A DNA stretch of 64,000 nucleotides from a virus (Duplodnaviria > Caudoviricetes), in the IMG/VR virus record IMGVR_UViG_3300028454_001166, positions 1 through 64,000 of that record; one strand, 5' to 3'. Position 1 is the stretch's first letter, and every line of letters starts with the position of its first letter. Below the pieces are notes generated by a model, which worked only from the letters and a program-made list of their open reading frames with translations, had not been told where the DNA came from and searched no databases. Made by a program: the position numbers and the translations under genes. Below are positions 10,011 to 48,583 of the stretch, one piece after another.

Positions 10011-10764
10011 TGGAATTTATAAATTCACAAATGTAATTGATGGTAAGTCTTATATTGGAAAAAGCAAAAATATAACCAGAAGATATAATCACCATAAGCG
10101 TTTGGCTGGCGGTGAAGCAGATGGCTTTAATCTATATGTAGACTCTGTTATGCGAGAAGTGGGATTCCATAATTTTGAGTTTATGGTACTTGAAGAGTGC
10201 CATCCAGAAGAACTCGATGAGAAGGAAAAATATTATATAAAAAAGTTTAACACCTTAATTCCGAACGGATACAATATAAGTTTTGGGGGAAGAGGAGGAA
10301 GGTTTCAATCCATAAAATCATTTGAAGAAATAAAAGAAATCCAGAGGTTATTGAGCGATACAGTTTTATCGGAAGCAGAGATAGGGCGGAAATTTGGGGT
10401 TACAGATGTTACTATTTCATATATAAATGTTGGAAAAATATGGAAAAACGAAAATGTGAGTTATCCAATAAGAACCTTAAGCCTAAATCGTATAATCACT
10501 CCGGTACATTGTGAACGATGCGGGAAAGCAATACATAAAAGAAATAAATTCCATTTATGCCAGAGCTGTTATTCAAAAAAGAAAGGCGAGCACATTCCGC
10601 CGAAAGAGTTGTTATTTGAGGAACTGATGGGATCAAGTTTTGAAGCGGTCGGTAGAAAATATGGTGTGACGGGAAACGCTGTAAAAAAATGGTGCGAGAA
10701 GTATGGTTTACCGAATCACGCCTATGAATATCGAAAACTACGAGATTTGAGGGATAAACATTAA
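10006..10764 (+). CDS. Free-standing GIY-YIG homing endonuclease
   Basis: GIYKFTN...YIGKS...RR, E..YI..FNT..PNGYNI; C-terminal HTH and CxxC..CxxC; AT-rich. Confidence 0.9.
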   Translation: MVGIYKFTNVIDGKSYIGKSKNITRRYNHHKRLAGGEADGFNLYVDSVMREVGFHNFEFMVLEECHPEELDEKEKYYIKKFNTLIPNGYNISFGGRGGRFQSIKSFEEIKEIQRLLSDTVLSEAEIGRKFGVTDVTISYINVGKIWKNENVSYPIRTLSLNRIITPVHCERCGKAIHKRNKFHLCQSCYSKKKGEHIPPKELLFEELMGSSFEAVGRKYGVTGNAVKKWCEKYGLPNHAYEYRKLRDLRDKH

Positions 10765-10820
10765 TGGTAATGTGCATGACTTTGAATCATGAAAAGAAGG
10801 TTCGATTCCTTCATCCCCTG
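10749..10820 (+). tRNA. tRNA-Gln(TTG), 5' half supplied by the end of the GIY-YIG ORF
   Basis: GAGGGAT-AA-ACAT-TAATGGTA-ATGT-G-CATGA-CT TTG AA-TCATG-AAAA-GAAGG-TTCGATT-CCTTC-ATCCCCT-G. Confidence 0.75.
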
Positions 10821-10856
10821 TTTAACTTGCAACCAACTTGCAACTAACTTGCAACC

Positions 10857-11105
10857 TTGAAAGGGGGTGATCCTACTGTGGACGGAGCAGGTAACGAGTT
10901 TCCGTTGACTATATCGCCGCCCGGAATTGATGAAATCATCGAATCTCTAAAGGGAGTAGGGATTGAAGTTGTTCCGGGCGAATCAACAGAGTATGTTATC
11001 GCTGAAGAACCGGATGGTAAGCGGTACAAACTTCCGAAGGATTTCAATATCTTCACGAATCCGATTAAGATTCCGATTGAAGAAAATGGAGGTGGGAAGA
11101 TATGA
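10857..11105 (+). CDS. Hypothetical protein (start uncertain)
   Basis: ORF overlapping the start of the next gene. Confidence 0.45.
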   Translation: MKGGDPTVDGAGNEFPLTISPPGIDEIIESLKGVGIEVVPGESTEYVIAEEPDGKRYKLPKDFNIFTNPIKIPIEENGGGKI

Positions 11106-11539
11106 TCTATACAGAGATTAAGGAAGACCTGTTTGAGGTTCCGGATCATTATTATTTAGCGCATTGTATTAACGGCAACTATACGCTTGGCGCAGGAATC
11201 GCAAGATCATTCGCCGATAGAATGAACATGAGGTATCATCTTGTGTCACAGTATCCGATTAAGGCCGGGGAACAGTATAAGTATATTGGAAAAGCTCTTC
11301 TTGTGGGACGTGTATTTAATCTTGTTACAAAAGCATTCCATTATAACAAGCCAACCTATGAATCGCTCCGATCTGCATTGAATGATATGCACGATCAATG
11401 TGAGGAACTTGGAATCAAGTATCTTGCCATGCCAAAGATTGGTTGCGGCCTTGACAGGCTCGATTGGAGCAAGGTGGGCGTGATGATCCGAGAAATCTTC
11501 AGTGATTTGGATATTGAAATTCTGGTGTGTTATATATAA
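11102..11539 (+). CDS. Macrodomain protein (Poa1p/TARG1/DarG-like ADP-ribose hydrolase)
   Basis: LAHCI...LGAGIA..F, FNLVTK, LAMPKIGCGLDRLDW. Confidence 0.85.
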   Translation: MIYTEIKEDLFEVPDHYYLAHCINGNYTLGAGIARSFADRMNMRYHLVSQYPIKAGEQYKYIGKALLVGRVFNLVTKAFHYNKPTYESLRSALNDMHDQCEELGIKYLAMPKIGCGLDRLDWSKVGVMIREIFSDLDIEILVCYI

Positions 11540-11555
11540 GCGAATAATATGTGGT

Positions 11556-11656
11556 GTATGCCCATGCCGAAAAGCGACGATAGTTGCCGGAGAATCGATC
11601 AACCCGACAGAGAAAAGGCGGCATACGTTTACTGAGCGTGAGGGGGACTCAGTAAG
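11556..11656 (+). ncRNA. Putative structured intergenic RNA
   Basis: GTATGCC/GGCATAC closing a multi-stem junction, then TTACTGAG/CTCAGTAA hairpin. Confidence 0.35.
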
Positions 11657-11667
11657 CTAAAGAAATC

Positions 11668-11817
11668 ATGACATACTATACAAAACGCTATTTTCTCGGA
11701 ATACCTATATATTCTGTGATTCATTATCCTCGAAAATGTGTAATAACTTTCTTCGATAAATTTTTGATGGAACACGGAATTGATGTTCCCGAAGAATATG
11801 AACCGTGGATGAGTTAA
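11668..11817 (+). CDS. Small hypothetical protein (49 aa)
   Basis: MTYYTKRYFLGIPIY...; weak RBS; followed by 12-bp inverted repeat. Confidence 0.35.
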   Translation: MTYYTKRYFLGIPIYSVIHYPRKCVITFFDKFLMEHGIDVPEEYEPWMS

Positions 11818-11900
11818 AAAATCTTTAATTACATCCGGGATGACTGGCTGTAATTAAAGAAAAAGACCGATTTCTTTAATTAAGATGAAAGGTGAACCAC

Positions 11901-12128
11901 ATGGCTGTTCAGAGATTGTACGGGTATATAATCGTATGTAACCGGTGTGGCAAGCAATCTGAGTATATCGGGAGACAGCCTCTGACTGATGATGACATTC
12001 AGAAATTAAGTCCGGATTGGCAGTTTATAGAAGACAAGAGGTTCCCGGCGTATAAGAATATCTGCCCAGCTTGCCTTATTAAAGATAGAGGTCAAAATAG
12101 TGAAGAAAAGAATAACGGTCATCCTTGA
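11901..12128 (+). CDS. Small zinc-finger-like protein
   Basis: CNRC...CPAC; AAGGTG RBS. Confidence 0.65.
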   Translation: MAVQRLYGYIIVCNRCGKQSEYIGRQPLTDDDIQKLSPDWQFIEDKRFPAYKNICPACLIKDRGQNSEEKNNGHP

Positions 12129-31257: not shown

Positions 31258-31761
31258 ATGGCAACAAAACGACCTTATAAAAACTCCGGTGCGGGCAAGG
31301 GCAAAGGTGCTCGCAACGGTGGAACCTTAATCACGCTTGATAAGCGCACGCCGGAAGAACGGCGCAAGATTGCATCAATGGGCGGAAAGGCCTCGGCTGT
31401 GAAAGCCAAGCGAGAACGCGACCTGAAAAAGCTGGCGCAGGAGTTCTTGAACATGGATGTCGCCGCGACACAAGCAACCATCCGTAATAAGATGGCGGCT
31501 CTCGGTCTTGCGGAGGACGACATGTTCTATGCGAATGCGATCTTAGCGGCTATGATCGTTCGGGCTTCGAATGGCGACGTAAACGCCGCGAAGTTCGTCC
31601 GGGATACCGCTGGCTTCAACCCGGAAGAGAAGGTCAATCTGAACGCTGAGGTAAGCGAAAAGTCCGATGTGTTGATCTACCTGCCCGAGATCGAGAAGGA
31701 TGAGGATGAAGATGCCGACGAAGAAACCGGTGGAGACCCCGACCGAGACAACGAGCAGTGA
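31258..31761 (+). CDS. terS: Terminase small subunit
   Basis: RTPEERRKIASMGGKAS, A.NGDVNAAKFVRDTAG; directly upstream of TerL. Confidence 0.75.
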   Translation: MATKRPYKNSGAGKGKGARNGGTLITLDKRTPEERRKIASMGGKASAVKAKRERDLKKLAQEFLNMDVAATQATIRNKMAALGLAEDDMFYANAILAAMIVRASNGDVNAAKFVRDTAGFNPEEKVNLNAEVSEKSDVLIYLPEIEKDEDEDADEETGGDPDRDNEQ

Positions 31762-33580
31762 GAGCATAATCATTCGCCCGCAACCGGGGCCGCAGGAGCG
31801 GTTTCTCGCTACGAGCGCTGATATTGCAATCTATGGCGGGAGCGCGGGCGGTGGAAAGGCACAGCCCCTTGACGAGCCCGTTCTGACGCCTTATGGCTTC
31901 TGGCCGATGCGGAGTATCCGCGTCGGGGTTCAGGTTTTAGCTCCGGACGGCTCTCGTGCTACAGTTATTCAGGTCCATCCGCAGGGTGTGGTTCCGGTTT
32001 ATCGCGTCAGCTTGTACGGGAACGCCAGTACCCGGTGTACAGCGGAACACCTGTGGAAGGTTTACTACCGTTCGGATTGGGCGATAAAAACGACACGAGA
32101 GCTGATCAAACTTCTGGGTTCGGGGGAGCCTATCTACGTTCCGGTGTACAGTGGTTCCCGGTGGACTTCCCGGAGGCGGATAGAATCCATCGAGTCGTGC
32201 GGCGAGACCGAGTGCCAGTGCATCACGCTGGATTCCCCCGATGGATTGTATGTGACGAAGGATTTCATCGTCACGCATAACTCCTACGGATTGCTTCTGA
32301 CCTTTCTCCGGTACAAGAATGAGCCGGGTTTCACTGCTACGATATTCCGTCAGAACTACAATCAGATCTTCGCGCCCGGTGGTTTGTGGGATGAAGCCGA
32401 GAAAATCTACGGGCGCATCCCCGGAGCCGAGAAAAAGACAATGGATGGCGCTTGGCAGTTTCGTGGGAAAGACGGGCGGATTCTTAGTAAGATCAAGTTT
32501 GCGCACATCGAACGGGATGATGCTGTACATAAGTGGCAGGGCTCACAGATAGCCGAAATTGGCTGGGATGAGCTCACCCATTTTACAAAGGCAGAGTTCT
32601 TTTATATGCTCTCCCGTAACCGTAGTACCTGCGGTGTGAAGCCCTTCGTCCGTGCGACTTGCAACCCGGACGCAAACTCATGGGTGGCGGAGTTCATCGA
32701 TTGGTGGATCGACCCGGATACCGGGTATCCCATCCAAGAACGAAGCGGGGTCAAGCGGTGGTTCATTCGTCGTGATGAACAGCTTTTCTGGGCCGACCGG
32801 AAACAGGATTTGTGGGCGGAGTTTGATCTTCAAACCCCGGAGGAGAAGCAAGAGCCCAAGTCTGTCACGTTTATTGCGTCGTCCATCTATGACAACAAGG
32901 AGCTGTTGCGGGTCAACCCGAGCTACCTTGCAAACTTGAAAGCCCTATCCGTCGTGGAGCGCGAACGGCTCCTGTACGGCAACTGGAAGATCAAACCCTC
33001 CGCAGGGCTGTTCTTCAAACGGACGCAGCTCGGGTCCATACTCGAGGTTATCCCGGATGACATCCTTCAATGGGTGCGGTGCTGGGACTTAGCCGCGACC
33101 GAGAAAGAGGAAAACGGCGATGCAGCTTACACGGCGGGCGTGCTGATCGGGAAAAGGAAGAACGGCAGATACATAATCGCGGACGTCATAAACAAGCAGA
33201 TGAGTGCCGCGGATGTCCGGAAGACGATCTACCTGACAGCACAGGCAGACCGGGCGAAGTTCAAACGCATCCGGATCCGGTTACCTCAAGACCCGGGCCA
33301 AGCCGGGAAGGAACAGGCACAGTCCTATATAAAACTGCTCTCCGGTTTTGATGTGACCGCGGTTCCCGAGACCGGGAGCAAGGAGAGCCGGGCCGAGCCT
33401 ATGGCGGCTCAATGGCAAGCCGGAAACTTCGACATCGTACACGCGGATTGGAATGAACCATACCTTGAACAGCTTGAGAATTTCCCCGAGTGGAAGTTTA
33501 AGGACATGGTGGACGCTTCGGCTAACGGCTTCGCGGAAGTCGAGCTGAAAGCGATGTTTAATATCGATACACTACTTTGA
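31712..33580 (+). CDS. terL: Terminase large subunit containing a mini-intein
   Basis: PQPGPQERF, YGGSAGGGK|S, WDELTHF, RATCNP, WDLAAT, KDMVDAS. Confidence 0.93.
   Translation: MPTKKPVETPTETTSSESIIIRPQPGPQERFLATSADIAIYGGSAGGGKAQPLDEPVLTPYGFWPMRSIRVGVQVLAPDGSRATVIQVHPQGVVPVYRVSLYGNASTRCTAEHLWKVYYRSDWAIKTTRELIKLLGSGEPIYVPVYSGSRWTSRRRIESIESCGETECQCITLDSPDGLYVTKDFIVTHNSYGLLLTFLRYKNEPGFTATIFRQNYNQIFAPGGLWDEAEKIYGRIPGAEKKTMDGAWQFRGKDGRILSKIKFAHIERDDAVHKWQGSQIAEIGWDELTHFTKAEFFYMLSRNRSTCGVKPFVRATCNPDANSWVAEFIDWWIDPDTGYPIQERSGVKRWFIRRDEQLFWADRKQDLWAEFDLQTPEEKQEPKSVTFIASSIYDNKELLRVNPSYLANLKALSVVERERLLYGNWKIKPSAGLFFKRTQLGSILEVIPDDILQWVRCWDLAATEKEENGDAAYTAGVLIGKRKNGRYIIADVINKQMSAADVRKTIYLTAQADRAKFKRIRIRLPQDPGQAGKEQAQSYIKLLSGFDVTAVPETGSKESRAEPMAAQWQAGNFDIVHADWNEPYLEQLENFPEWKFKDMVDASANGFAEVELKAMFNIDTLL
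31859..32281 (+). mobile_element. 141-aa mini-intein (Ala-start, class 3-like) in the TerL Walker A
   Basis: GK|AQPLD...CTAEHLW...ECQCI...VTHN|S; no endonuclease domain. Confidence 0.9.
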
Positions 33581-33629: not shown

Positions 33630-36485
33630 ATGGCGATGGACACGCGCGGGTATAAAAATCTCCTGCGGAAACAAACGGGAAAAGCTGTGCGTCCTGTCCG
33701 TTATGATGGGTATGTAAACCTCATCAACCGTTACGGGACCTCAAAAGATATAGACGAGCAGTACTTCTTTTCTCCGGAGCCGGATGTGCCGGATGATGAA
33801 CTGGAGCTGTTTTACGAAGGAAACGGGCTGTTCGCAAAGATCATCGATACCCCCGCTGAGGAAGCCGTGAAGCACGGCTTTGAGTTGGAAGATCTGAACG
33901 ACGATGAAATCAAAAACTTCTACGAATCCGCTCTGGATGAGCTGGATTGGGAAGAAGTGTGCATGACCTGCATTAAATGGGCGCGTCTTTATGGCGGGAG
34001 CCTCGCGGTCATGCTGATCAACGATGGCCGCGGGCTTGAAGAACCGCTCGATTGGGATTCTATCGAGTCCATCGACGATATTGTTGTCTACGACCGGTCG
34101 CTGATCGTTCCGGACCAGTCCAGCATCTATAAGTACGAGAAGGACAACCCGTTCGGCACAAGAGGCAGTCGCCTCGGAACACCCGAATGGTACGAGATAA
34201 ACAGCACAAACGGGAACTTCCGGGTTCACGACAGCCGGGTTCTCGCGTTCCGAAATGGCGTGCTTCCGCAGAGAGCAACACACCAGAACTACCAGCTCTG
34301 GGGCATTCCGGAATATGTGCGGATCAACCGAGCGATCCGAAATGCGGAGGTTGCGCACGAGAGCGCTCCGAAGATGCTCTCGAAGTCCGTCCAGCCCGTG
34401 TACAAGATGAAGAATCTGTCTGAGCTGCTGGCGACCACGGATGGCGAGGACAAGGTTCTGCGGAGGCTCCGTTTGATCGATATGGCGCGGAGCTTCCTGA
34501 ATTCCATTACCATCGACCAAGAAGGCGAAGACTACAGTTTCGCCTCCTTTGCGTTTAACGGAGTCGATCAGGTTATCACCTCCTCGTGCAACTGGCTTTC
34601 CGCGCTGACGTCCATTCCGCAGACTATCCTGTTTGGGCGGTCGCCCGCGGGCATGAATGCGACCGGAGACGCCGACCTCGAAAACTACTACAACTATGTG
34701 GAACGGATTCAGAAGCGGATGGTTCGGTCGAATCTCCGGTATCTGTTGTCCGTGATATTTACCGCGGGTCTGCATACCGGCGAGATCGATCATATTCCCG
34801 AGTTCAGCATCAAGTTCTCCCCGTTGTGGTCCATGACTGAATCCGAGCAGGTTGCGCTTGATTTGCAGAAAGCTCAGGTTGAGTCCGCGCGTGCGCAGAC
34901 GGCGTCCACATACATTCAAAATCAGGTTATCGATCCCGGCGAAGTCCGGAAGAGCCTCGCGGAATCGGACGAGTTCGACATCGAGACGATGCTGGACGAT
35001 TACACCGAGGAGGAACTTGAAGAGAACGCTCCAAAGGGCGAAGAGGGCGGGATGCCCGGTGAAGGTGGTTTGCCCGGTATGCCTCCCATGGGTGGTGCGC
35101 CGGACGGTGGCGGTATGCTTCCCATGGGTGGTGATCCCGGGTCGGGGCAGGAGGCCCCGGCACAGCCCGCACAGGCCGCTTCTGAGCCCGTTTCCGAGAG
35201 CGGGGAAGAAGGATACGCCCTGCAAGGAAACAGCCCTGAAACCGCCCCTGAAGCGACCAAGCTGCCTCAAGACCAGCTCGAGGAAGACCCGGATCATGAA
35301 GATGCGGAAAACATGGATGATGAGGACGAAGGGGCAGATAAAATCATATCTCGCCACGGCAAACCGGACTACGAGGCTCCGGTTCCCGCGGGAGAGGCTT
35401 CTTCATGGCTCGTCCAAGACCTCGACCCTCTCATGACGAACAACCCGGACACATCTTCTCCCGATTGGACCGATGATGAGATCAAACGCAGAATCCGTTC
35501 TGTGGGTGTTCTGGTAGTTGATCAGTTCGGGAAGATCCTCACTGGTGTGCGTAAGGGCGGAAGCGGTGAGAACTACGGACTGCTTGGCGGTCCCGGTGGC
35601 CACGTTGAGCCGGGGGAATCCCTCGAAGACGCGGCTATCCGTGAAACCTATGAGGAGTTCGGGATCGTCCCGAAAGATCTGATGTTCATTTCCCTCGGTC
35701 GCTACGAAGAGGACAGTGGGATGATCCCTGCCATCTTTCTTTGCACGGAGTGGGCCGGAAGGATCTACCCGGTAGACGGGGAGATGGAGAATATCCGGTT
35801 CCGGACTATAGACGACATCGAAACACACAAGTTGTTCGGGCCGTTCGAATCTTCTCTGGAAATACTCGAAAAAGAGTTGACTTCCGAGGATGAAGATGGT
35901 AATATAGTGATGGATGAATTCGTGGAGAGCGACCATCCCAGAGATGAAGACGGACGGTTTTCCAAGAATTCCACATCCGGTGCTAAGAGCGCTTCACCAA
36001 GCGGCGGGAAGAGCTCGACGAAATATGCTGAAATTGACGATGATGATGAAGAATATAATCCAGATCTTGATGGACCGGGGGAAGAGGCCAAACGAGAGAA
36101 AGAGCATGCAATAAGCTACTATAAAGCCGTTAGGCGTCGGCACGGTGATGTCAAGAAGATCGCAAGGAATACCGGATTTCCCGAGCAAGTGATCGATAGA
36201 ATTCGTGAACATGTTTTCATGAAGAAGCACGATCTGGGAGACGATAAAATGAAACGCTTTTCCCCGGATTATGATATGGCACAGTCATGGCAGCGGTTAG
36301 TGAAGGGAAAAAACATTCAACCCCATGACGTCACCCTTTTGAAGCATGAACAAAAAGAGTACGAGCTGATGGATTCGGGACTATCTCAGGATAAAGCCCA
36401 CGCGTTAGCGACCCGAGAATTTGATTATCAAGGAGAGGTGGAAAAATACAATGGTAAAAGTCAAAAACATAACAAAGACACCTGA
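33630..36485 (+). CDS. Portal protein (DUF1073-like) fused to a Nudix hydrolase and a C-terminal toxin-like domain
   Basis: WARLYGG, IPQTILFGRSPAGMNATGD.DLENYY; Nudix box 35598-35666 GHVEPGESLEDAAIRETYEEFG; HPRDEDGRF; C-terminal PDYDMAQSWQRL...HEQKE...AH. Confidence 0.88.
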   Translation: MAMDTRGYKNLLRKQTGKAVRPVRYDGYVNLINRYGTSKDIDEQYFFSPEPDVPDDELELFYEGNGLFAKIIDTPAEEAVKHGFELEDLNDDEIKNFYESALDELDWEEVCMTCIKWARLYGGSLAVMLINDGRGLEEPLDWDSIESIDDIVVYDRSLIVPDQSSIYKYEKDNPFGTRGSRLGTPEWYEINSTNGNFRVHDSRVLAFRNGVLPQRATHQNYQLWGIPEYVRINRAIRNAEVAHESAPKMLSKSVQPVYKMKNLSELLATTDGEDKVLRRLRLIDMARSFLNSITIDQEGEDYSFASFAFNGVDQVITSSCNWLSALTSIPQTILFGRSPAGMNATGDADLENYYNYVERIQKRMVRSNLRYLLSVIFTAGLHTGEIDHIPEFSIKFSPLWSMTESEQVALDLQKAQVESARAQTASTYIQNQVIDPGEVRKSLAESDEFDIETMLDDYTEEELEENAPKGEEGGMPGEGGLPGMPPMGGAPDGGGMLPMGGDPGSGQEAPAQPAQAASEPVSESGEEGYALQGNSPETAPEATKLPQDQLEEDPDHEDAENMDDEDEGADKIISRHGKPDYEAPVPAGEASSWLVQDLDPLMTNNPDTSSPDWTDDEIKRRIRSVGVLVVDQFGKILTGVRKGGSGENYGLLGGPGGHVEPGESLEDAAIRETYEEFGIVPKDLMFISLGRYEEDSGMIPAIFLCTEWAGRIYPVDGEMENIRFRTIDDIETHKLFGPFESSLEILEKELTSEDEDGNIVMDEFVESDHPRDEDGRFSKNSTSGAKSASPSGGKSSTKYAEIDDDDEEYNPDLDGPGEEAKREKEHAISYYKAVRRRHGDVKKIARNTGFPEQVIDRIREHVFMKKHDLGDDKMKRFSPDYDMAQSWQRLVKGKNIQPHDVTLLKHEQKEYELMDSGLSQDKAHALATREFDYQGEVEKYNGKSQKHNKDT
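35877..35905 (+). promoter_or_regulatory. Promoter embedded in portal CDS ahead of the toxin domain
   Basis: TTGACT-17-TAATAT with TG extension. Confidence 0.7.
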
Positions 36486-36687
36486 TTTCATTTCTGGGGA
36501 AGCGTATGTTGAAGACTGTCCTACGGCCATTAAGATTTCCGTTGATTCCGAGGGCGGCATTCGCGCGGACCCGCTTCCCGAAGGGTACGATTGGTGTAAA
36601 AAACATCTTCGGTATGCGATTGGGGTTCTCCGACAAGCGCGTAAAATGGAGGATCCTCCTACCGAACGAACGATAATGTGGTATTGA
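36451..36687 (+). CDS. Putative immunity protein for the portal C-terminal domain
   Basis: 78 aa, overlaps toxin 3' end, GAGGTG RBS, followed by terminator. Confidence 0.65.
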   Translation: MVKVKNITKTPDFISGEAYVEDCPTAIKISVDSEGGIRADPLPEGYDWCKKHLRYAIGVLRQARKMEDPPTERTIMWY

Positions 36688-36706: not shown

Positions 36707-36734
36707 AAAAAAGGACGGGGGCCCGTCCTTTTTT
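36707..36734. terminator. Bidirectional terminator
   Basis: AAAAAAGGACGGG-GG-CCCGTCCTTTTTT. Confidence 0.8.
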
Positions 36735-36753
36735 CATGCCTTCGGAGGACATT

Positions 36754-37341
36754 GTGGGAAAAGTCGATGAATATATAAAGCGGAGGAGAATCCGGCTTCT
36801 TTCCCGGAACGGAGAAACACCTTCATTCTCAGATCGAGTAACGGCTTTCAAGGCCCGTCGCGCAGCTCGGCTCGACGTACGGAATAAAGAACTTGAAATG
36901 CTGAAAAATGGGTTGACTTTCTCCAAATATAATGGTAACATTGCAATGGATGAATTCGTGGAAGGCGACCATCCACGGGATGAGAACGGGCAATTCGCTA
37001 AAGCGAATAGCTCCGAGGCTTCAAGCGAGTCGGGAGCTGAAACGGTAAAACCGCAACCCACGACCCCATCTGCAAAAGAGATCCGGTCCCGTTTGATCGG
37101 GCAAAAAACGCAGGACGGGCAAACGGTAAAGTCGGTGAGCGACCACGCAGTACAAAGGGTTCAGGAACGGAAGATCGGTTTTGATACAATCGAGAATTTG
37201 TTCCAATCCGGTAACGTTCGGCCCGGACACACACCGAACACGATTTGCTATGAAACCGATAAGCACAGAGTTGTTTTCGACAAAAACAACGGCAAAATAG
37301 TAACCGTGATGCACCGGGGCAATAGAGGAGGCAAGAAATAA
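36754..37341 (+). CDS. Leader-bearing protein with C-terminal DUF4258/BECR-like putative RNase toxin
   Basis: GGAGG then GTG; two RRxxRL leaders; HPRDENGQF; SDHAVQRVQERKI...VVFDKNNGKIVTV. Confidence 0.7.
   Translation: MGKVDEYIKRRRIRLLSRNGETPSFSDRVTAFKARRAARLDVRNKELEMLKNGLTFSKYNGNIAMDEFVEGDHPRDENGQFAKANSSEASSESGAETVKPQPTTPSAKEIRSRLIGQKTQDGQTVKSVSDHAVQRVQERKIGFDTIENLFQSGNVRPGHTPNTICYETDKHRVVFDKNNGKIVTVMHRGNRGGKK
36913..36941 (+). promoter_or_regulatory. Promoter embedded in CDS ahead of the toxin domain
   Basis: TTGACT-17-TAACAT with TG extension. Confidence 0.65.
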
Positions 37342-37601
37342 TGGACACGAAGGGCTTTCTTGATCTGCTGAATCAAGAACAAAATGATTTCATCCTCGAT
37401 GAGTTTTCCATGACGCAGGATCAGCTCCTCGGCCTTTCCGATGAAGGCCTCGACGAGCTCTACGAAGAGCTGGCAGACATTGAGGTTGAGGAGACGATGA
37501 AAGCCGAAGAAACGGGCGCAGCTCTTTCGGACAGAGGCCGGATTGCTTCTGAGATCGTCACTGTTTGGGGCAACGCCTACGCCGAGATAGACGAGGAGTG
37601 A
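37341..37601 (+). CDS. Acidic putative immunity protein
   Basis: TAATG coupling to a basic toxin; very acidic 86 aa; terminator follows. Confidence 0.7.
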   Translation: MDTKGFLDLLNQEQNDFILDEFSMTQDQLLGLSDEGLDELYEELADIEVEETMKAEETGAALSDRGRIASEIVTVWGNAYAEIDEE

Positions 37602-37695: not shown

Positions 37696-38652
37696 GTGAA
37701 CGAAAAGATACCCGCCCAACTGAAAAACGCGACTGACAAAGCCCCCACGAAGGTCAGAAGCCGCGTCCGGGCAAAAGGGACGCTCCTGTACCCGGATTCA
37801 TCCGAACGGGAGTACGCTTCGCTGGCTTTGAAGCACGCCCGGATGTACGGCGACCTGTTAAAAGAATACCTGCCGGAGATCGAAACGATTCTCCGTGAAA
37901 CCGCGAGGACGGATTCCAAGGATTACCACGATGATGCGAAAATCCTTGATTTCTCCGAGCGGTTTTCTCGTACCATCCGGAAGATGGAAAAAGAGCTGGC
38001 CGAAAAGCTGGACGATTTCGACACGGAGTACTTCATCAAGAAGGTGGCGAAACGGGCAAACGGGAGCAACACCCGCCAGTGGTTGCAGCTGATAAAGAAA
38101 ACCTACGGGATCGATCTTGACGGTCACTACTACAACAAAGGAACGTGGGCGGATATGATCGACAGATGGGCCGCGGAAAACGTCGGCTATGTGAAGTCAA
38201 TTCCGCAGGATTCTCTGGCTACACTTCGCCAGATCGTCCAGAACGGGTACTACGACGGCTGGGGGGTCATTAAGACCCGGAACGAGATCATGAAGGCTTT
38301 CGGGGTTTCCAAGAAAAAAGCAAAGATGCTGGCCGCGGATCAAATGGGTTCCTTGTGTGCGCAAATAACCCGGAAGAAGCAAACGGACGCCGGGTGCAAA
38401 CGGTATCGATGGAAAGCCCGAAACGACAACCGTGTTCGGGATGCGCACAGGCAGTACAACGGGAAAATCTTCTCATGGGACAACCCGCCGCCCGCGTGGT
38501 ACATGACCAAGACGAAGGGGAAGGTCTTCACCGGGAGGCATTGTCATCCCGGCGAGGATTACTGTTGCCGGTGCATAGCGATACCGATCTTCGATTCGGA
38601 CACGCTTCAACTGCCCGTGAAGAGCGGATACGAGGAGACCGGACAAACGTGA
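37696..38652 (+). CDS. Head morphogenesis protein (MuF / SPP1 gp7 family), short form
   Basis: A.DQMG...YRW...DNRVRDAH...GKIFSWD.PP...HPGEDYCCRC. Confidence 0.92.
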   Translation: MNEKIPAQLKNATDKAPTKVRSRVRAKGTLLYPDSSEREYASLALKHARMYGDLLKEYLPEIETILRETARTDSKDYHDDAKILDFSERFSRTIRKMEKELAEKLDDFDTEYFIKKVAKRANGSNTRQWLQLIKKTYGIDLDGHYYNKGTWADMIDRWAAENVGYVKSIPQDSLATLRQIVQNGYYDGWGVIKTRNEIMKAFGVSKKKAKMLAADQMGSLCAQITRKKQTDAGCKRYRWKARNDNRVRDAHRQYNGKIFSWDNPPPAWYMTKTKGKVFTGRHCHPGEDYCCRCIAIPIFDSDTLQLPVKSGYEETGQT

Positions 38653-38669: not shown

Positions 38670-39515
38670 ATGAATAAAGTACGCGCTTTCCAAGGGCGTC
38701 GATATAAGCGGCTCCTCGCAAGGATGGATGCCAACACTGACAAAGGAAAATGGATCACAACCGAAAACAATCACAAAGTCCATCTGAACGAGAACGGACA
38801 ACCAGATATGGGCAACCCTCACGTGATCGCTGCGATGGGTGGTAGCGAGTCCTCAGTACAGGTAAGTGATCTCAGTAAGCGGGTTGAGGGACTTAAGAAG
38901 ATGAAAAAGACCGAACGGCAACAGGAGCTTGCGAGTATTCTCGGTGATATGCCGGTGGGTTCTCAGATTACAGTTAAGAACCCGGGGCTTCCTGATCAAG
39001 TCATAACGAAAAAGGACGCGGAAACCTTCGAGCTTAAGACCACGATGTTTGGTGCACCATCCGTTCACGATTCTTCACTCTTCGCATTGTCTCACGGTTT
39101 GTCTAATGATAAGAGCAATGCGTATTCGTTCGAAGGCTCCGGCACAATGCAATCTCAGGCGAAGGCGGAAAGTGGCGTTAATCCCAACGCTAAAACCCCC
39201 TCCAATGTATCATCTTCAAGTTCAAGTGGGGGTGGGTCTACAGTGCCCCCCGATGCAGATGCTCTTGCTAAGACAAAGGCTCAAAAAGCCGCTGAAAAAG
39301 CTAAGACTGCGGCCATGCTCAAAAAAGCACAAGCCGCGGTAGCTAAAAAAGAAAAGATCTCACAGATTGATAAGGAAATCGAGCAGCTGGAACACGAGAT
39401 GTATAAGGCCCAGCATTACGGGAATACCGAGATCGGGGATTGGGATCTGTCCCACGAACTTGAAATGAAAATCCATAATCTTGAGGAGCAGAAAAAGAAG
39501 CTCACAGGGAAGTAA
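38670..39515 (+). CDS. Leader-bearing putative capsid-cargo protein with C-terminal coiled coil
   Basis: MNKVRAFQGRRYKRLLARMD..GKWITT..HLNENGQPDMGNP. Confidence 0.8.
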   Translation: MNKVRAFQGRRYKRLLARMDANTDKGKWITTENNHKVHLNENGQPDMGNPHVIAAMGGSESSVQVSDLSKRVEGLKKMKKTERQQELASILGDMPVGSQITVKNPGLPDQVITKKDAETFELKTTMFGAPSVHDSSLFALSHGLSNDKSNAYSFEGSGTMQSQAKAESGVNPNAKTPSNVSSSSSSGGGSTVPPDADALAKTKAQKAAEKAKTAAMLKKAQAAVAKKEKISQIDKEIEQLEHEMYKAQHYGNTEIGDWDLSHELEMKIHNLEEQKKKLTGK

Positions 39516-39537
39516 AAGTTAAAGCGAGGCATTTTTG

Positions 39538-42500
39538 ATGAATAAAACGGATGCGTACCGTAACCGCCGGTATAAGCGGCTTCTCGCAAGAATGGATGAA
39601 GTGGATGGCCATTTCGACGACGAGGGGCATTGGGTCACAACCCACGAAACGAAACGGCACATACACATAAACGAGAACGGGGTTCCTGATAAGGGCAACC
39701 CCTATATTATTGCCAAGATGACCGGGACGAAACCGAAACTCAGCGGCGAATACCGGAAAAAATCGCTGCAGGAGAGTTTCGGTAAAGGGAATACCGGTAA
39801 GGCAGTGCATTCGTTGAAGAGCCTTCCCGAAGGATCGACGATCAAGATGGCAAACGGAACGGAGTACACAAAGACCGGAAGCGGCTTTGTCAGTTCCAAG
39901 AGTAAAACGGGTGGTAAACAGACCCCGCAAGCTCTGGCGAAAATCCTTGATGGTCATACGAAGGCCGGTAAGAACTTCGAGGTCAATCCTTCCGACATTG
40001 GCGGGGCTGTCGAAGCGGGGAAAAACACGGGAGCCCCGAAGCCCGGACAGGGTGCTGAGTCCGAGGCTCCGAGTGCTTCTACGTCAGAATCGGTGCCGGA
40101 AACCGCATCAGCATCGTCCCCGGAGATCGATGCGCTTAACACGGTAATCGATCAATGGGGCGCGGGCAATCAGGTCCCCGCAGTAACCACATTGCAAGCT
40201 CTCACGGGTTTAGAAGACGGGACGAAAATCTTAGTTGACGGGTTTACCTTTGAAAAGCAGTCTGAAATCAGCGCGCTTGGGGCAGGGAAGGTCACTTCCT
40301 TTAAGAACACGGACACGGGCGAGGTCTTTAGTAAGGGTACGTTTAAGGCAATCCTGAAAAGCTATGCAGAGGAAGGTCAGCACGATATAGAGGTGCAAGC
40401 GCCCGGTCAATCGACGCCCGCCTCGGCTGAGGCCGCACCTGCTCCGGATGAGGTGGCCCCGGTTGAAACGGCTTCGACTTCTCCTGAAGTAACCAAATTC
40501 AACGACATTCTTTCAGGGTGGGCTGGCCACTACAGCGATGGGACACTTACAGAGGACGATATTGCCGCCGCAAATGCTTTGAAGGATGGCACGATTATCT
40601 CCGTTAACGGAAAAGATACCTACAAAAAGGTTACCGAACACTCCATGTACGGCGACTATCCGTGGTTTGAAAACTTAGAAACCGGGAAATGGTCGAATGT
40701 ACCCGCGCTGAAAAAAATCGTGGGCGGGGATGACGTACAGGCTGTACAGGTGAAAGATCCCGCAAATGATACAACAGTTTCTGCGCCAGCTTCTGAACAA
40801 GAGCCTACGCCGACGTCGAGTGCCGAGCCTTCTGCCGAGCAACCGAGTTCTTCTTCCGGTGGTAAGACGATGAAGGACCTGACAGAGTCCTTGAAAAAGT
40901 ATCCCCCGACCATGGAGGGGGCGAATAAGTTCTGGAATGAAGTCAATAGCACCTTCGATAACGCCCCTGACGGAACTGAGATAACCTTTCCTGATGAAGA
41001 CGATGGAAAATGGATCAAGGAAACCCACGGGAGCCTGACGCAATGGGTAAACCTCGCTTCCGGCGATACGATGGATAACAGTGAGATGTCGGCGGCTTTC
41101 TTGGATTCCGACTTTGGCAAGGATCTCGATAACATTTCTGCCGGAATAACCTATAAAGAACCTACCGGCGCGGGGACGCCGGGTTCAAGCTCGAGCGGTT
41201 CAAGTGGTTTAGCCTCGCAGGATTATTCGGGCCAAAAAGAAGCCCTTAGCGATCTGATCAAAAACGTGCCCGATGCGAGCATTGCCGCCTATGAAACGGT
41301 GTTGGATGAATTCCCAGAGGGCACCATCATCAAGGTTGGCGGAAAAACGTATGAAAAAATTCCGTCCGGGGATTGGGGTGATCCAGATACAGGGTTGCCG
41401 CTTGGCGAGTCTTGGGATGTGGGCTACGAGCTGAAGCACTATAACCCTCAACACACCTTAGACATTTCGATACCCGGAGAAAACACCGCCGCGTCTTCCA
41501 CCGGCAATGCGAATACACCTACTACGAGTTCTGACCCGGCGCAGTATTCGGCGTCTCTTTCAGGGGTAAAAAGCGCTGTAGATAAACTGAAACAAGGGAA
41601 ATTCGTCCATCCGGCAGAGTTCAAAAAGGCGTGTAAGTCAATGAAAGACGGCGATGGAATCGTCACGAACGGAAAAACCTATATCAAGGGTACAGATTCG
41701 TCCGGAAATCCGGTGTTCCACCCTTCTGATTCCCCACAGCACACTTACAGTTCTACCGGCATGGTGGACATCATGGCATACCAGATCGGTTTGCAAAAAG
41801 CCGGTCTCTCAAACGGGGTTTCGTTCAAATCCGGATCGGATCAATCCAGCTCAGGAAGTACAGCCGGTGCTTCACCCAGCACGGCAGCTCCCACGGCAAC
41901 ACCGAGCGTGGCCGCAAAAGACACGCAGAAATCAATCAAAAATGCTAAGACCAAAGCCGCCGTCGCTTCGGCTCTGGACGCGCTTCCCGTGGGAACGAAG
42001 ATCCACATGAAGAACCAAGGGGAAACCGTGTTCACAAAAACGGAGCACGGTTTCTCAAAAGAGTCTAAGTTCTGGGGCGGGACCATTCACACCCTTACCG
42101 ATGACGTGGTGAAATATGTTCACGGGAAGAATAAATACGCCGCGCCCTTTGCTATCGAAGATACTTCTGGCGGAACAACCGATTTCTCGGACGGTTCAAG
42201 CTATAAAGCCCCGGCGCATTCGTCTACCGCGTCTTTGCAAAGCCAGTCTTCCTCCTCCGCCTCGTCCGCTTCATCTTCCGCATCAAGCCCGAAACCGAGT
42301 GCTTGGAACGGGCTAAAAGCAAAAGTCCAACATGCCGCCGAAGCGTTCACCCAAGCCCGGAAGAACGCGGCCCATTGGGATAAAGGGGGCGGAATGGCAA
42401 CCGATAAACTGCTGAGACCGGTTACAGGAGCAGTATGGAAAAAACTAACTGAGGGGCAGAAGAAGAGTCTGGTTGCCTATACCGGGAGCGCTTATGCGAG

Positions 42501-43023
42501 CATAAATGACGCATTGAGAAACGGAACCGGTAAACGAGCTGCAGACATAAACAACATGACAACGGCTATCGATCAGTGCGAAGCGCCCACCGATATATGG
42601 CTTCAGAGAGGATGTTCGACATACGCATTGAGTAAGCTGTTCAACACCGATACGATGACCCTTGAAAAAGCGCGTTCAAAAGGATCCCAAGCTATTCTTG
42701 ACCTTTTGTCCACCTCGGCAAACTACGGTCAGGATAAGGGTTTCATGTCATGCGGGTCTTCGAAAGGGAAGGGCTTTTCCTCTAACGATGTGATTTTGAA
42801 CGTGTACTGTCCGAAAGGCACGAAGATGATGTATGCGGAACCGTTCTCCCACTATGGCGCGACAAGTGCCGGAGCTACGTGGAACGGCTCGTCTGGTACA
42901 ACTCATGTTTCAGGCGAACACGAAACAATCCTGCAAAGGGGGACAATGCTCCGTCCCACAAAGGTCACGGTGTCTAACGGTAAGATATACGTGGATGTAG
43001 ACGTAATCGGTCAAAACTACTAA
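39538..43023 (+). CDS. Large leader-bearing protein with 7 internal repeats and a C-terminal VIP2/Alt-like ADP-ribosyltransferase
   Basis: Leader as above; YTGSAYASINDALR, WLQRG, KGFMSCGS, VYCPKGTK, GEHETILQRGT (R-S-ExE). Confidence 0.88.
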   Translation: MNKTDAYRNRRYKRLLARMDEVDGHFDDEGHWVTTHETKRHIHINENGVPDKGNPYIIAKMTGTKPKLSGEYRKKSLQESFGKGNTGKAVHSLKSLPEGSTIKMANGTEYTKTGSGFVSSKSKTGGKQTPQALAKILDGHTKAGKNFEVNPSDIGGAVEAGKNTGAPKPGQGAESEAPSASTSESVPETASASSPEIDALNTVIDQWGAGNQVPAVTTLQALTGLEDGTKILVDGFTFEKQSEISALGAGKVTSFKNTDTGEVFSKGTFKAILKSYAEEGQHDIEVQAPGQSTPASAEAAPAPDEVAPVETASTSPEVTKFNDILSGWAGHYSDGTLTEDDIAAANALKDGTIISVNGKDTYKKVTEHSMYGDYPWFENLETGKWSNVPALKKIVGGDDVQAVQVKDPANDTTVSAPASEQEPTPTSSAEPSAEQPSSSSGGKTMKDLTESLKKYPPTMEGANKFWNEVNSTFDNAPDGTEITFPDEDDGKWIKETHGSLTQWVNLASGDTMDNSEMSAAFLDSDFGKDLDNISAGITYKEPTGAGTPGSSSSGSSGLASQDYSGQKEALSDLIKNVPDASIAAYETVLDEFPEGTIIKVGGKTYEKIPSGDWGDPDTGLPLGESWDVGYELKHYNPQHTLDISIPGENTAASSTGNANTPTTSSDPAQYSASLSGVKSAVDKLKQGKFVHPAEFKKACKSMKDGDGIVTNGKTYIKGTDSSGNPVFHPSDSPQHTYSSTGMVDIMAYQIGLQKAGLSNGVSFKSGSDQSSSGSTAGASPSTAAPTATPSVAAKDTQKSIKNAKTKAAVASALDALPVGTKIHMKNQGETVFTKTEHGFSKESKFWGGTIHTLTDDVVKYVHGKNKYAAPFAIEDTSGGTTDFSDGSSYKAPAHSSTASLQSQSSSSASSASSSASSPKPSAWNGLKAKVQHAAEAFTQARKNAAHWDKGGGMATDKLLRPVTGAVWKKLTEGQKKSLVAYTGSAYASINDALRNGTGKRAADINNMTTAIDQCEAPTDIWLQRGCSTYALSKLFNTDTMTLEKARSKGSQAILDLLSTSANYGQDKGFMSCGSSKGKGFSSNDVILNVYCPKGTKMMYAEPFSHYGATSAGATWNGSSGTTHVSGEHETILQRGTMLRPTKVTVSNGKIYVDVDVIGQNY

Positions 43024-43410: not shown

Positions 43411-44331
43411 ATGATAGGAGCCATCATCGGTGACATCGTCGGCTCGGTCTACGAGTTCGACAATCATCGATCAAAGATTTTTCCGCTTTTTGATTCTCGC
43501 TGTGCGCTGACAGACGACAGCATAATGACGCTGGCCATCGCAAGAGCGCTCACGATCTACGGGCAGCAGGGGACGTATGAAAACCTGCAATCTGAGACGA
43601 TCCGGCAGATGCAGAGGGTCGGTCGATGCTACCCCGATTGCGGTTGGGGCGGGCGTTTCGGAAGGTGGATCTTCTCAGACGATCCGAAGCCATACAACAG
43701 CTTCGGGAATGGCGCGGCTATGCGGGTCAGCGCGATTGTCGCCGCGGCTCCAAACCTCGAAACGGCGAAGCTGTGGACGAAGCTGGTAACCGAGATTTCG
43801 CACAACCACCCGGAAGGGATCAAAGGCGCACTTGCGACGGTTGAGCTTGCGTGGATAGCAAAAGAGGCCAGAAAACGCACGAATCCAAAATGCAAAGATC
43901 GCATTTTCAAAGCCGCTTTGAAATACTACCCGGAAAAAGACTTCGCCGGAGATTTCAACCTTGATGCGATCCGCCCCAAATACCGATTCAACGAAACCTG
44001 CCAAGAGACGGTTCCGCAAGCCATCGAAGCGTTCCTTGAATCGAGAGATTTTGAGGACGCTATTCGAAATGCGATCTCAATCGGCGGGGACAGCGACACG
44101 TTAGCCGCAATTACAGGGACTATCGCCGAGGCCTTCTACGGGGTGAAGCAGGAGCATAAAGCAAAAGCGCTCAAATACTTCGACAGCCTCCAATACGGAA
44201 TCTACAGTGAGTTTTCAGCTATGTACAACGATCTGCCCGTATTCGGAGAGCTGTCCGGAGAAATCGCATTCCGAACAACCGAAGACGGATCCATCGGCGG
44301 GATTTCTACGATGGGAGACGTCATTGGGTAA
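43411..44331 (+). CDS. ADP-ribosylglycohydrolase (DraG/ARH family)
   Basis: GAIIGDIVGS.YEF, TDDS, SFGNGAAMR, SHNHPEG, GGDSDTLAAI. Confidence 0.93.
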   Translation: MIGAIIGDIVGSVYEFDNHRSKIFPLFDSRCALTDDSIMTLAIARALTIYGQQGTYENLQSETIRQMQRVGRCYPDCGWGGRFGRWIFSDDPKPYNSFGNGAAMRVSAIVAAAPNLETAKLWTKLVTEISHNHPEGIKGALATVELAWIAKEARKRTNPKCKDRIFKAALKYYPEKDFAGDFNLDAIRPKYRFNETCQETVPQAIEAFLESRDFEDAIRNAISIGGDSDTLAAITGTIAEAFYGVKQEHKAKALKYFDSLQYGIYSEFSAMYNDLPVFGELSGEIAFRTTEDGSIGGISTMGDVIG

Positions 44332-46419: not shown

Positions 46420-46749
46420 ATGCCGGAGAAAGAAATGAGCGTCATTGAAACCATCTGCCAGCAGATGATTAAGTCTGCGGGGGATGTCATCGCGCTCGAG
46501 CAGGTTATATCTCGGCTGGAAGACCACAATAACGATAAGGTGTTGGAGCTGTTTGAACACCTGCAAATCTCCAATCTGGAAGCCCTGCAAACCTTGACAG
46601 TCGCCTTAACGGGTGAAATGCTGGAATCCCGGAAGACCGAAAACGATGATTCGGATGATGGCGGCGTCTTTGCGCCGGGGGAGCTCGATTGGAAAAAGAA
46701 AGCCGAGGTGATCGGCCACGGTGAAACGGAGGAAGAAGCCGATGAATAA
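46420..46749 (+). CDS. Hypothetical head-module protein
   Basis: GGAGG RBS; overlaps start of the DUF2213 gene. Confidence 0.7.
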   Translation: MPEKEMSVIETICQQMIKSAGDVIALEQVISRLEDHNNDKVLELFEHLQISNLEALQTLTVALTGEMLESRKTENDDSDDGGVFAPGELDWKKKAEVIGHGETEEEADE

Positions 46750-48583
46750 GACCATGCCTAAGCTGGTTCACGTCACACGGCTTGACAGTTTCCCCGTAAC
46801 CCGTGCAACGTACACGGATGAAGGTTATCTGTCCGACCGACCGATTCTGACGTCAACCGGAATCTTCGAGTACAAAAACAAAGATGGCTCGATCAGACGG
46901 GAGCTGAGGCTCCCGGAGGAAGTTTTTGACCCTGAAAGTCTTGAATCCTATAAAGGGAAGCCCATCGTGATAACACACGATGCCGGGCTTATTAACCGTG
47001 ACAATGTTCAGGAAAATCAGATAGGGACGATCCTCAGCGCCGGTGAGCGCGACGGGGATGATGTTCGGGCTGACATCATGATTCATGATACAAAGGCCCT
47101 GAAAAACTGTCGATTCAAGGAACTGTCGCTCGGTTACAACCTCGACCTTGAAGAGGAACCGGGAGAATGGGAAGGGCAGAAATATGATGCCATCCAGCGG
47201 AACATCCGCGTGAACCATCTTGCCGTTGTCAGGGAGGCAAGGGCGGGAGATCAGGCGCGGCTGAACATAGATAGCCGTTCCGATAACACAATCTTAACAG
47301 GAGGACATAGGACTATGGCCAAGAAGAAGACCCGCCGTAAATACAACAACGACGGCATCCTCAGCCCTGAACAGCTGCAGGAAGCAATCGCAAAGTATAA
47401 GGCGGAACAGGCGGCGCTTGCCGCTGAAAATCAGGACGAAGATCCTGATGAAGAGGCCGAGGAACTCGCAAAGACCGAGGTTGTAAACCCCGAGGCCGAT
47501 GTGCAGAAGAATGAGCTGAACAAGGATACGGACAAGCCGGTTCCTGCTCCGCAGAATACCGCGCCGCAGGTGCTCCCCCCGAAGAAGCCCGTGGCTCCGA
47601 GCATCCCGCTCCCGAGTCAGGACAGGCCCATTGAGGAGAAGCTCGACGCGGTGAAGCACAGACGCGATCTCCGCGACGAGAAGGGTGACCCCAAGGACCT
47701 TAATGAGGCCATGGAAAGCATCGCTGAATACGACGAGGAGCACGATTATTATCGTGACATCATCGACACCCTTCTCGCTGAACGTGACTTCGAAAAGGGT
47801 AAGAAGGCCGACTCTGCGCAGGAGCCCATCCCCGACACCGAGACCGCTGAAATCGGTGACAAGGGCAAGGAGAAAGACGAGGACTGTGTGGACAACAAGC
47901 TCGACTCCGAAGACGCTGACACCCCCTTCACCGATGAAGAAGAGGTAAAGGAAGACGACGAGGAAGACACCGACCCGTTTGGTGACGAGGACTTCGCTGA
48001 CGAAGATCTCACCGAAAACGAGGGTGAGGAAGAGGATCCGGCTTTTGCCGATTCTGACCTCGGCGACCCGGACTCCGCTGATCCCGATAACGAGGACGAC
48101 GATGACGAAGAGGCACTTCCCGACTACGATCTCACCGATCCCGACATCGACGATGCAGATGAGGAGGAGGAATCCTACCCGCGTCTGAATCAGGATTCTA
48201 TCGACCGGGCTGTTCGGAAAGAAGTGCAAAGACGGCTCGCCATCGCCAAGGTAGGCCAGCGGCTCAACATGGACGGTCTGGAAACCATGAGCCTCCGCAA
48301 AGCGAAGCGCATGGTCATTAAGAAGGTTTATCCTTCTGTCCGGCTCGACGGTAAGAGTGACGCCTACATCAACGGTATGTACAACTGCTGCGTAAAAGAG
48401 CTGAAGAAACACCCCCGGAAGGATACCGCCTACCAGAAGCGGCAGATGTTCAATAAGGTGTTCAACAAGGACTCTCAGGACTTCGATAACACCGATTCCG
48501 CGGCAACCGCGCGTGACAAGATGATCGAACGGCAGCTGGATCGCAAGCCGGAACGTCATAGCGTTCGTGCGGAAAAGAAATAA
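46742..48583 (+). CDS. DUF2213 putative prohead protease with acidic scaffold region
   Basis: GIFEY, ELRLPEEVF..SL.S..GKPI..H, ELSLGY, YDAIQRNIRVNHLAVV..ARAG. Confidence 0.9.
   Translation: MNKTMPKLVHVTRLDSFPVTRATYTDEGYLSDRPILTSTGIFEYKNKDGSIRRELRLPEEVFDPESLESYKGKPIVITHDAGLINRDNVQENQIGTILSAGERDGDDVRADIMIHDTKALKNCRFKELSLGYNLDLEEEPGEWEGQKYDAIQRNIRVNHLAVVREARAGDQARLNIDSRSDNTILTGGHRTMAKKKTRRKYNNDGILSPEQLQEAIAKYKAEQAALAAENQDEDPDEEAEELAKTEVVNPEADVQKNELNKDTDKPVPAPQNTAPQVLPPKKPVAPSIPLPSQDRPIEEKLDAVKHRRDLRDEKGDPKDLNEAMESIAEYDEEHDYYRDIIDTLLAERDFEKGKKADSAQEPIPDTETAEIGDKGKEKDEDCVDNKLDSEDADTPFTDEEEVKEDDEEDTDPFGDEDFADEDLTENEGEEEDPAFADSDLGDPDSADPDNEDDDDEEALPDYDLTDPDIDDADEEEESYPRLNQDSIDRAVRKEVQRRLAIAKVGQRLNMDGLETMSLRKAKRMVIKKVYPSVRLDGKSDAYINGMYNCCVKELKKHPRKDTAYQKRQMFNKVFNKDSQDFDNTDSAATARDKMIERQLDRKPERHSVRAEKK

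Follow-up and report, generated by a model that had tools for sequence, protein, structure and literature searches.

Colicins and the toxin modules of the contact-dependent inhibition (CDI) and Rhs systems combine exchangeable C-terminal (CT) cassettes at a conserved junction with separate expression of immunity and the occurrence of solitary immunity genes. In this work we analyze a 951-amino acid (aa) phage portal open reading frame (ORF), P0001, and the 78-aa gene that overlaps its end, both located in a stretch of 64,000 nucleotides (nt) from the IMG/VR virus record IMGVR_UViG_3300028454_001166 (Caudoviricetes; hereafter, the window). The closest described systems are the MuF polymorphic toxins of temperate phages (Zhang et al. 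2012, PMC3482391; Jamet et al. 2017, PMC5576092), among which Apk2 (PMC10083569) and Bxa (PMC11699363) have been characterized, and the polyvalent proteins of Iyer et al. 2017 (PMC5512222), which include portal-PBECR, portal-2H and portal-InPase fusions predicted to be packaged and injected. Iyer et al. 2022 (PMC9503650) also reported T4-NudE-like Nudix domains fused to MuF, portal and head protease proteins and, because they name such fusions, the idea of a portal-Nudix protein is already in print. The reading we favor for P0001, and consider reasonably probable, is that the portal of a temperate phage, here a prophage with kinship to Faecalibacterium phage FP_Brigit, has acquired an extension that makes it the carrier of two head-borne enzymes, with a swappable, toxin-like tip and a cognate partner.

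P0001 shares with the MuF toxins a conserved head carrier, a variable, toxin-like C-terminus, a small cognate ORF and a location in the packaging module of temperate Firmicute phages, and its own tip occurs on MuF1 and MuF2 proteins, such as gp4 of Clostridium phage CDMH1. It differs from them in that the carrier is the portal and in that a constant Nudix domain lies between carrier and tip; in addition, portal-borne cargo would amount to 12 copies per virion, as opposed to the 1-2 of SPP1 gp7. P0001 would hence work like a MuF toxin and yet is not one, since it has no MuF domain. As in the proteins described by Iyer et al. (2017, 2022), at least two effector domains reside in one portal-fused polypeptide, and the Nudix domain and tip of P0001 are encoded between terminase and head protease genes, as befits a polyvalent protein. 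Neither of these studies, however, describes the three-part family of portal, Nudix and polymorphic tip, the pairing of the P0001 tip with its partner, the HPRD and GNFGHxGRPG junctions as exchange points, or a promoter at the cassette border. Like the colicin, CDI and Rhs modules, the locus has an immunity-like gene directly downstream and a promoter-like element inside the toxin-like gene that could express immunity alone, but the vehicle of delivery would be a phage capsid instead of a secretion system, and the sequences are unrelated.

The portal-Nudix fusion and its exchangeable C-terminus

The P0001 ORF begins directly 3′ of the large terminase gene (TerL, 31700-33580) and runs through a portal domain, a linker, a Nudix domain, a junction motif and the tip (Table 1). 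The portal match to PF06381 is full-length (243 bits against a Pfam cut-off of 33.8; profile positions 2-353 of 357) and is accompanied by a match to phrog_15528, annotated as "portal protein" in PHROGs, at 5e-174. The domain is sequence-related to the solved portals 9jlf, 9l01 and 8hds, which are deposited as 12-chain rings. A profile search of the whole genome returned P0001 as its one PF06381 match, and the ORF list of the window contains no second portal ORF. The linker, the length of which differs between portal-Nudix relatives, leads to a Nudix domain (57 bits against a cut-off of 21.1 in Pfam) with a Nudix box, G-x5-E-x7-RE-xx-EE-x-G, at aa 657-679 (nt 35598-35666) in which the catalytic Glu residues are all kept. 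Compared with the sequences of solved structures in the PDB, this domain resembles generic MutT, ADP-ribose and ApnA-type enzymes (E 9e-8 and weaker); its substrate class is not assignable from sequence. Past the Nudix domain, a Ser/Gly/acidic spacer separates the MDEFVESDHPRDEDGRF motif from the C-terminal tip. The 951-aa protein has no MuF match in Pfam or PHROGs, MuF being encoded by a separate 318-aa gene (37696-38652).

The initial annotation of the window, made from the sequence alone, had described the portal-linker-Nudix-tip ORF and the overlapping gene, and every feature for which it gave coordinates lies at the stated position. The fusion of a portal to a Nudix hydrolase that it put forward is borne out by Pfam portal and NUDIX matches in a single frame, with an intact Nudix box. 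Its caution that portals of the DUF1073 family are sometimes auto-annotated as the anti-CBASS protein Acb1 found no counterpart in 40 sampled annotated phage records, which say "portal" or "DUF1073" only, and the Acb1 phosphodiesterase family is absent among the Pfam, NCBIfam and PHROG matches of the ORF. Not included in that annotation were the promoter and terminator of the cassette itself, its wide spread in public data and its partial description in print.

The portal-Nudix fusion is more than the product of chance or of an assembly error. Three contigs on record in NCBI, JGI, Logan and ENA encode exactly this 951-aa protein, and a word-indexed search retrieved 5674 relatives of P0001. Nearly all of the best 120 of these 5674 relatives combine PF06381 with PF00293 in a length of 725-1534 aa, and the Nudix box is in frame with the portal in 118 of 121 proteins (P0001 and its 120 nearest relatives). 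The nearest cultured relative is found in Faecalibacterium phage FP_Brigit (MG711465.1), whose 828-aa protein AUV56649.1, labeled only "portal protein" in GenBank, is 55.6% identical to P0001 over the portal part. Like P0001, it presents a portal, a linker, a NUDIX domain, a MDFNEADHPRDENGQF junction, a tip and a small ORF, in that order. The tip of FP_Brigit, however, is a different one of ~110 aa without a Pfam match (L001, 5301-6129), and its small ORF, which overlaps the portal stop codon, encodes a 62-aa Cys_rich_CPCC protein (PF14206) that differs from the product of the 78-aa gene.

The divergence between FP_Brigit and P0001 reflects a general feature of the lineage. A second relative (P0014) is 54% identical to P0001 from the start through the Nudix domain and unrelated to it past about aa 760, and the tips of portal-Nudix relatives include Ntox50, ADPrib_exo_Tox, DUF4258, PRTase and unannotated domains; the tip of P0001 itself is absent from all of its 120 nearest portal-Nudix relatives. 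The break point lies just past the last Nudix helix (…LFGPF..SLEIL…) and is marked by either of two interchangeable short motifs, MDEFxExDHPRDxxGxF (also written MDEFVExDHPRDxxGxF) or DGGPGSGNFGHxGRPGxxGGS. Both junctions of the window are spanned by a 98-nt direct repeat (35856-35953 and 36892-36989, 73% identical), which is the footprint that would be expected of cassette exchange. A Nudix domain that is constant across the lineage, combined with tips that vary, is the pattern expected of polymorphic toxins, and three of their hallmarks are found at this locus: a conserved carrier with unrelated, exchangeable C-termini, a tip common to other carrier families, and a covarying downstream ORF. 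The initial description of the tip as polymorphic-toxin-like therefore stands, since relatives bear different tips at the same junction, some of them from named toxin families.

The gene that follows the cassette in the window repeats its organization (Table 1). In the phages of loci L089-L092, a DUF4258-type tip and an acidic small ORF are fused directly to the portal-Nudix protein, whereas in the window the DUF4258 module is a separate protein, one gene further on and with its own leader. Because the same module is fused to portal-Nudix in L089-L092, the copy in the window looks displaced or independently loaded.

Table 1 Coordinates of the features of the portal-Nudix-tip locus and of the cassette that follows it (positions in the window)
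Feature	Position	Strand	Description
Portal-linker-Nudix-junction-tip ORF (P0001)	33630..36485	+	951 aa; single open frame, no internal stop
Portal domain, Phage_portal_3 / DUF1073 (PF06381; TIGR01555)	33798..34877	+	aa 57-416; Pfam E 4e-72
Low-complexity Gly/Pro/Met/acidic linker	35022..35429	+	aa ~465-600 (~135 aa); internal 36-nt tandem repeat
Nudix hydrolase domain (PF00293)	35490..35825	+	aa 621-732; Pfam E 2.6e-15
Sigma-70-type promoter-like element	35877..35905	+	TTGACT-17 nt-TGgTAATAT; inside the portal ORF, peptide LTSEDEDGNI
Junction motif MDEFVESDHPRDEDGRF	35910..35960	+	aa 761-777; homology to other portal-Nudix proteins stops here
C-terminal tip domain	36078..36476	+	aa ~817-949 (~130 aa); mostly helical, unnamed
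Partner (immunity-like) gene	36451..36687	+	78 aa; ATG at 36451; 35-nt overlap with the portal ORF
Intrinsic-terminator-like hairpin and U-run	36707..36734	+	-24 kcal/mol, z -4.0; follows the small gene
DUF4258 protein gene	36736-37341		repeats promoter and MDEFVEGDHPRDENGQF junction; DUF4258 (RNase-type) at end
Acidic ORF	37341-37601		86 aa; follows the DUF4258 gene; then a terminator 87% identical to that at 36707

The tip domain and its partner gene

The family of the tip domain was delineated by scanning 1.84 billion cluster representatives (50% identity) in full with HMMER, accepting matches with E of at most 1e-3, and comprises 1573 representative clusters. In the best 150 of these 1573 matches the domain forms the very C-terminal end of proteins 135-1080 aa long. 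Carriers of the tip belong to MuF1 (PF04233), MuF2 (PF06152) or VG15 (PF25310), or have no Pfam family, and are for the most part MuF head proteins; they include CDMH1 gp4 and the products of many Streptococcus prophages. Jamet et al. 2017 (PMC5576092) list the CDMH1 MuF protein as "Cter-Unk", so the domain had been seen earlier but never named. The MuF half of the initial proposal, which likened the tip to MuF/Rhs-type C-termini, is upheld by these carriers, but the Rhs half is not, with neither Rhs nor secretion-system carriers among the ~270 matches listed.

Across 40 diverse members of the family, Y831, R835, D840, H867, S886, W887, R889, D900, H906, E907, E910 and H924 are invariant and H826 is nearly so, yielding a His/Glu pattern of the form H..H..D..HExxE..H. 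The AlphaFold model of the tip is confident (pLDDT, the predicted local distance difference test, of 89.9) and consists of seven helices and a small hairpin. Its first three helices (18-36, 40-48 and 52-64 in domain numbering) resemble a helix-turn-helix (HTH), with the pattern IAxNTGxSxxxIxxI. From the residue pattern we would guess at a metal-dependent enzyme, whose target may be nucleic acid, contacted via the HTH-like half. The HExxE motif may be compared with the HExxH of zincins, but no zincin appeared among the fold matches listed, which helical hairpins filled. In the ESM Atlas the tip matches unnamed clusters and one cluster with Pyocin_S on 37% of its members (score 0.91), a lead that could not be confirmed. 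Two candidate assignments were rejected. Ntox50 (PF15542), which is the tip in the closest relatives bearing a named one, gives no Pfam match at E up to 10, and hhalign against Ntox50-bearing relatives returns a probability of 0.4%; the Ct_MAD of Jamet et al. is a 251-position proteobacterial profile, and the tip-bearing CDMH1 protein is not listed under it. Separately, a divergent copy of the tip ends a 549-aa protein without MuF or portal domain (L133, G520:C1:160016-163336). This protein looks LXG-like by eye, but its N-terminus has no Pfam match, and it may represent a non-phage carrier of the tip.

The 78-aa gene is preceded by a strong ribosome-binding site, GGAGAGGTGG, at 36431-36441, 9 nt 5′ of the ORF. 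A word-based homologue search with its product returned only itself, and the family was recovered instead from the gene neighborhoods of the tip. Among 80 viral contigs retrieved through the tip domain, a homologous ORF of ~79 aa directly follows the tip in 78, usually with an overlap of 31 nt, and one of the two exceptions is due to the end of a contig. The product of the gene in the window scores E 6e-19 against a family profile built without it, and the assignment of the overlapping gene to the tip made in the initial annotation is thereby substantiated. The partner diverges faster than the tip (mean pairwise identity of 30% versus 52%) and the divergence of the two is correlated (r 0.49, a value reached by 0 of 2000 permutations in a Mantel test), although co-inheritance alone would also yield such a correlation. 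In 400 sampled genomes of the same class, the tip and the small gene are adjacent wherever both occur. There are also solitary partner genes without a detectable tip (L134, G371:C12; L140, G516:C1; L136, G221:C1), one of which adjoins an AraC-family regulator and another a Schlafen/HATPase_c_4 gene; the orphan immunity genes of other toxin systems show such solitary occurrence. In the model of the 78-aa protein (pLDDT 95), a sheet of five strands packs against a single helix; a fold search with it gave only generic alpha/beta domains (best Z 5.5) and no informative match, and the ESM Atlas no named match. Taken together, the tip and its ~79-aa partner define a large, unannotated two-gene family that is common in gut Firmicute phages.

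Putative transcription signals in the cassette

At the cassette border, the coding sequence of P0001 appears to double as a promoter. On the scale used here, the maximum score is 12.75, and matches of at least 10.5 were counted. In FP_Brigit, TTGACA-17-TGcTAAGAT lies 59 nt upstream of the junction, and no other match on the same strand reaches 10.5 within 10.5 kb; in locus L087 a perfect TTGACA-17-TGGTATAAT lies 53 nt upstream of the junction. Among MuF-borne tip cassettes, a promoter of at least 10.5 is present in 33 of 48 non-redundant loci, at a fixed distance of -420 to -437 nt from the small gene, which corresponds to the 5′ border of the tip, compared to 0.3% of 960 background windows reaching that score. 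The element in the window is located 57 nt upstream of the HPRD codons and ends 4 nt before the ATG of the MDEF motif, and near-identical copies of it are located at 36913 and 43051.

The coding sequence itself bears marks of this arrangement. The -10 box is spelled by a conserved peptide, x-I-I, in which Ile is encoded by ATA in 29 of 29 cases, compared to 36% of Ile codons elsewhere in the carriers, with the caveat that the associated p-value is indicative only, given that the relatives are not independent; the codon preceding the -10 Ile always ends in T. The -35 box, in turn, persists although the amino acids that it encodes and its codon phase differ (LTN, (L)DK, VAN, VEK).

With the ATG of MDEF only 4 nt past the -10 box, transcription would in most cases probably begin at this ATG or further on, so that the small protein alone would be made; in our judgment, a transcript dedicated to immunity would be more likely than a leaderless mRNA translated from the MDEF ATG. 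A terminator near-identical to that following the small gene also follows the next (DUF4258) cassette and, with its own promoter, payload and terminator, the cassette looks like a "moron"-type unit.

Proposed function, alternatives and genomic context

In the reading put forward at the outset, the tip would be a toxic or host-modifying enzyme, probably metal-dependent and perhaps targeting nucleic acids through its HTH-like half, and the 78-aa protein would be its cognate inhibitor, or immunity protein. In lysogens, which would thereby be protected, the embedded promoter would supply immunity, and translational coupling would do so when the late genes are expressed. Given that the portal is dodecameric, with a C-terminus that we infer to face the inside of the capsid, each head could contain as many as 12 copies of Nudix domain and tip. 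The DUF2213 head-maturation protease encoded downstream (46721-48583) would free both, and the freed enzymes would leave the head together with the DNA when a cell is infected, the route proposed for MuF toxins. A more specific proposal, which we advance tentatively and with doubts slightly outweighing our confidence, is that the tip and the 79-aa protein constitute a new enzyme-toxin/immunity family with a fold not yet in the PDB and an in-frame promoter spelled by "G-I-I" (GGT ATA AT), so that the antidote can be made alone while the toxin remains under late control, and that the cassette plugs into portal, MuF1, MuF2 or VG15 carriers at short junctions.

Several observations weigh against these proposals. 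The promoter copy in the window scores 9.75 of 12.75, and the region overall contains no more promoter-like matches than chance would give (8 found, 9.8 expected), so that the case for a promoter is built on comparison with relatives; among these, the L088-L093 sub-lineage lacks such a promoter. A terminator within a late head operon would require read-through or antitermination for expression of the downstream head genes. A portal-tethered domain cannot leave the capsid unless it is cut, and there is no known cleavage site; the "xxD" sites put forward for release in the initial annotation are hypothetical. The tip has no match in Pfam (at E up to 10), NCBIfam, PHROGs or PDB sequence and profile searches. 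The Foldseek comparison suggested in the initial annotation gave a best E of 0.7 against the PDB and identified no fold, alignment of the tip to 48,161 chains with VIA-align reached a best Z of 5.7 that involves only the last helical hairpin, and a search of BFVD returned nothing. Given this lack of a recognizable fold or family, the enzymatic nature of the tip is argued from its invariant His, Glu and Asp residues.

An alternative that we deem unlikely takes the tip not for a toxin but for an accessory of the head, either structural or nucleic acid-binding, which might for instance hold or pilot the end of the DNA in the manner of SPP1 gp7; the 78-aa protein would then serve as its assembly chaperone or plug. 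In favor of this view, the tip matches no toxin family, its N-terminal half resembles a three-helix HTH, MerR/DtxR-type and homeodomain proteins appear among the weak top rows from Foldseek, and it is carried by MuF proteins, a group in which the founding member, gp7, binds both DNA and the portal (PMC5576092, PMC10083569). A chaperone, however, needs no promoter and terminator of its own for expression apart from the late operon, and solitary copies beside unrelated genes would be unexpected for one. Bona fide toxin families with their own small ORFs occupy the same junction in relatives, and the invariant H, HExxE and H of the tip suggest catalysis over binding.

A second alternative accepts that the Nudix domain and tip are enzymes but has them act in the producing cell, before delivery or in its absence, as late cytosolic activities of portal subunits that are free or still assembling; these might, for instance, clear nucleotide signals or shut down the host, with no ejection involved. 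The lack of an obvious exit route for a tethered domain agrees with this view, a constant Nudix domain with variable tips would fit a housekeeping role in infection, and the carriage and injection of MuF toxins are still open in print (PMC10083569). We judge it quite improbable, since fusing a cytosolic enzyme to an obligate virion protein would be odd, the long flexible linker and the neighboring prohead protease better suit a cargo role, and an immunity-type partner with lysogen-style signals fits protection from an incoming toxin. As for the long ORF being a frameshift or misassembly artefact or a decaying pseudogene, we found no support for it and assign it a negligible probability: the low-complexity linker could in principle conceal an indel, but an identical product is found on three contigs in several archives, thousands of homologues, that of a cultured phage included, are in frame through the linker to an intact Nudix box, and neither the genome (for portals of the PF06381 type) nor the window offers another portal ORF.

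The packaging and head module of the window belongs to a prophage of a gut bacterium, located on contig C45 of a 128-contig, 4.3-Mb bacterial genome. Its genes are arranged in the order small terminase, large terminase, 951-aa ORF, 78-aa gene, DUF4258 gene, acidic ORF, short MuF and cargo-like genes, with a 1162-aa ADP-ribosyltransferase (ART), an ADP-ribosylglycohydrolase (ARH; 43411-44331) and the DUF2213 protease later in the module. The phage's own MuF gene is short and bears no toxin. Two cargo-like proteins (38670-39515 and 39535-43023) share an N-terminal leader of the form RRYKRLLARMD…H(I/V)x(I/L)NENGxPDxGNP, encoded by a 34-nt repeat that is 88% identical; at the end of the second lies an ADPrib_exo_Tox domain, and the ARH gene follows. 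We speculate that a Nudix domain beside two ART-type cargo genes and an ARH may form part of a head-delivered toolkit for ADP-ribose, NAD-related or nucleotide chemistry.

Two further features of the window were recorded. The TerL gene is split by a mini-intein of ~140 aa that starts with Ala (insert at about 31865-32280) and sits in the Walker A loop of the protein (GGSAGGGK / AQPLDEPV…FIVTHN / SYGLLL). The insert matches the gp41-1 intein (6riz, E 5e-5) and DnaB mini-inteins, and the Pfam terminase match resumes at aa 209. Five tRNA genes (Thr, Ser, Asn, Met, Met; 7937-9241) adjoin a stretch of low GC content (10000-12000; 39%, compared to 51-57% elsewhere), and this combination may mark a prophage end or another island.

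A toxin borne on the portal makes the question of virion carriage easy to address, because the portal is present in every particle, in 12 copies. FP_Brigit, which has the same layout, is in culture, and mass spectrometry of its virions could answer the question of toxin carriage directly. The in-frame promoter of the cassette, if true, would explain how lysogens are protected and would provide a clear example of a coding sequence constrained by a transcription signal.

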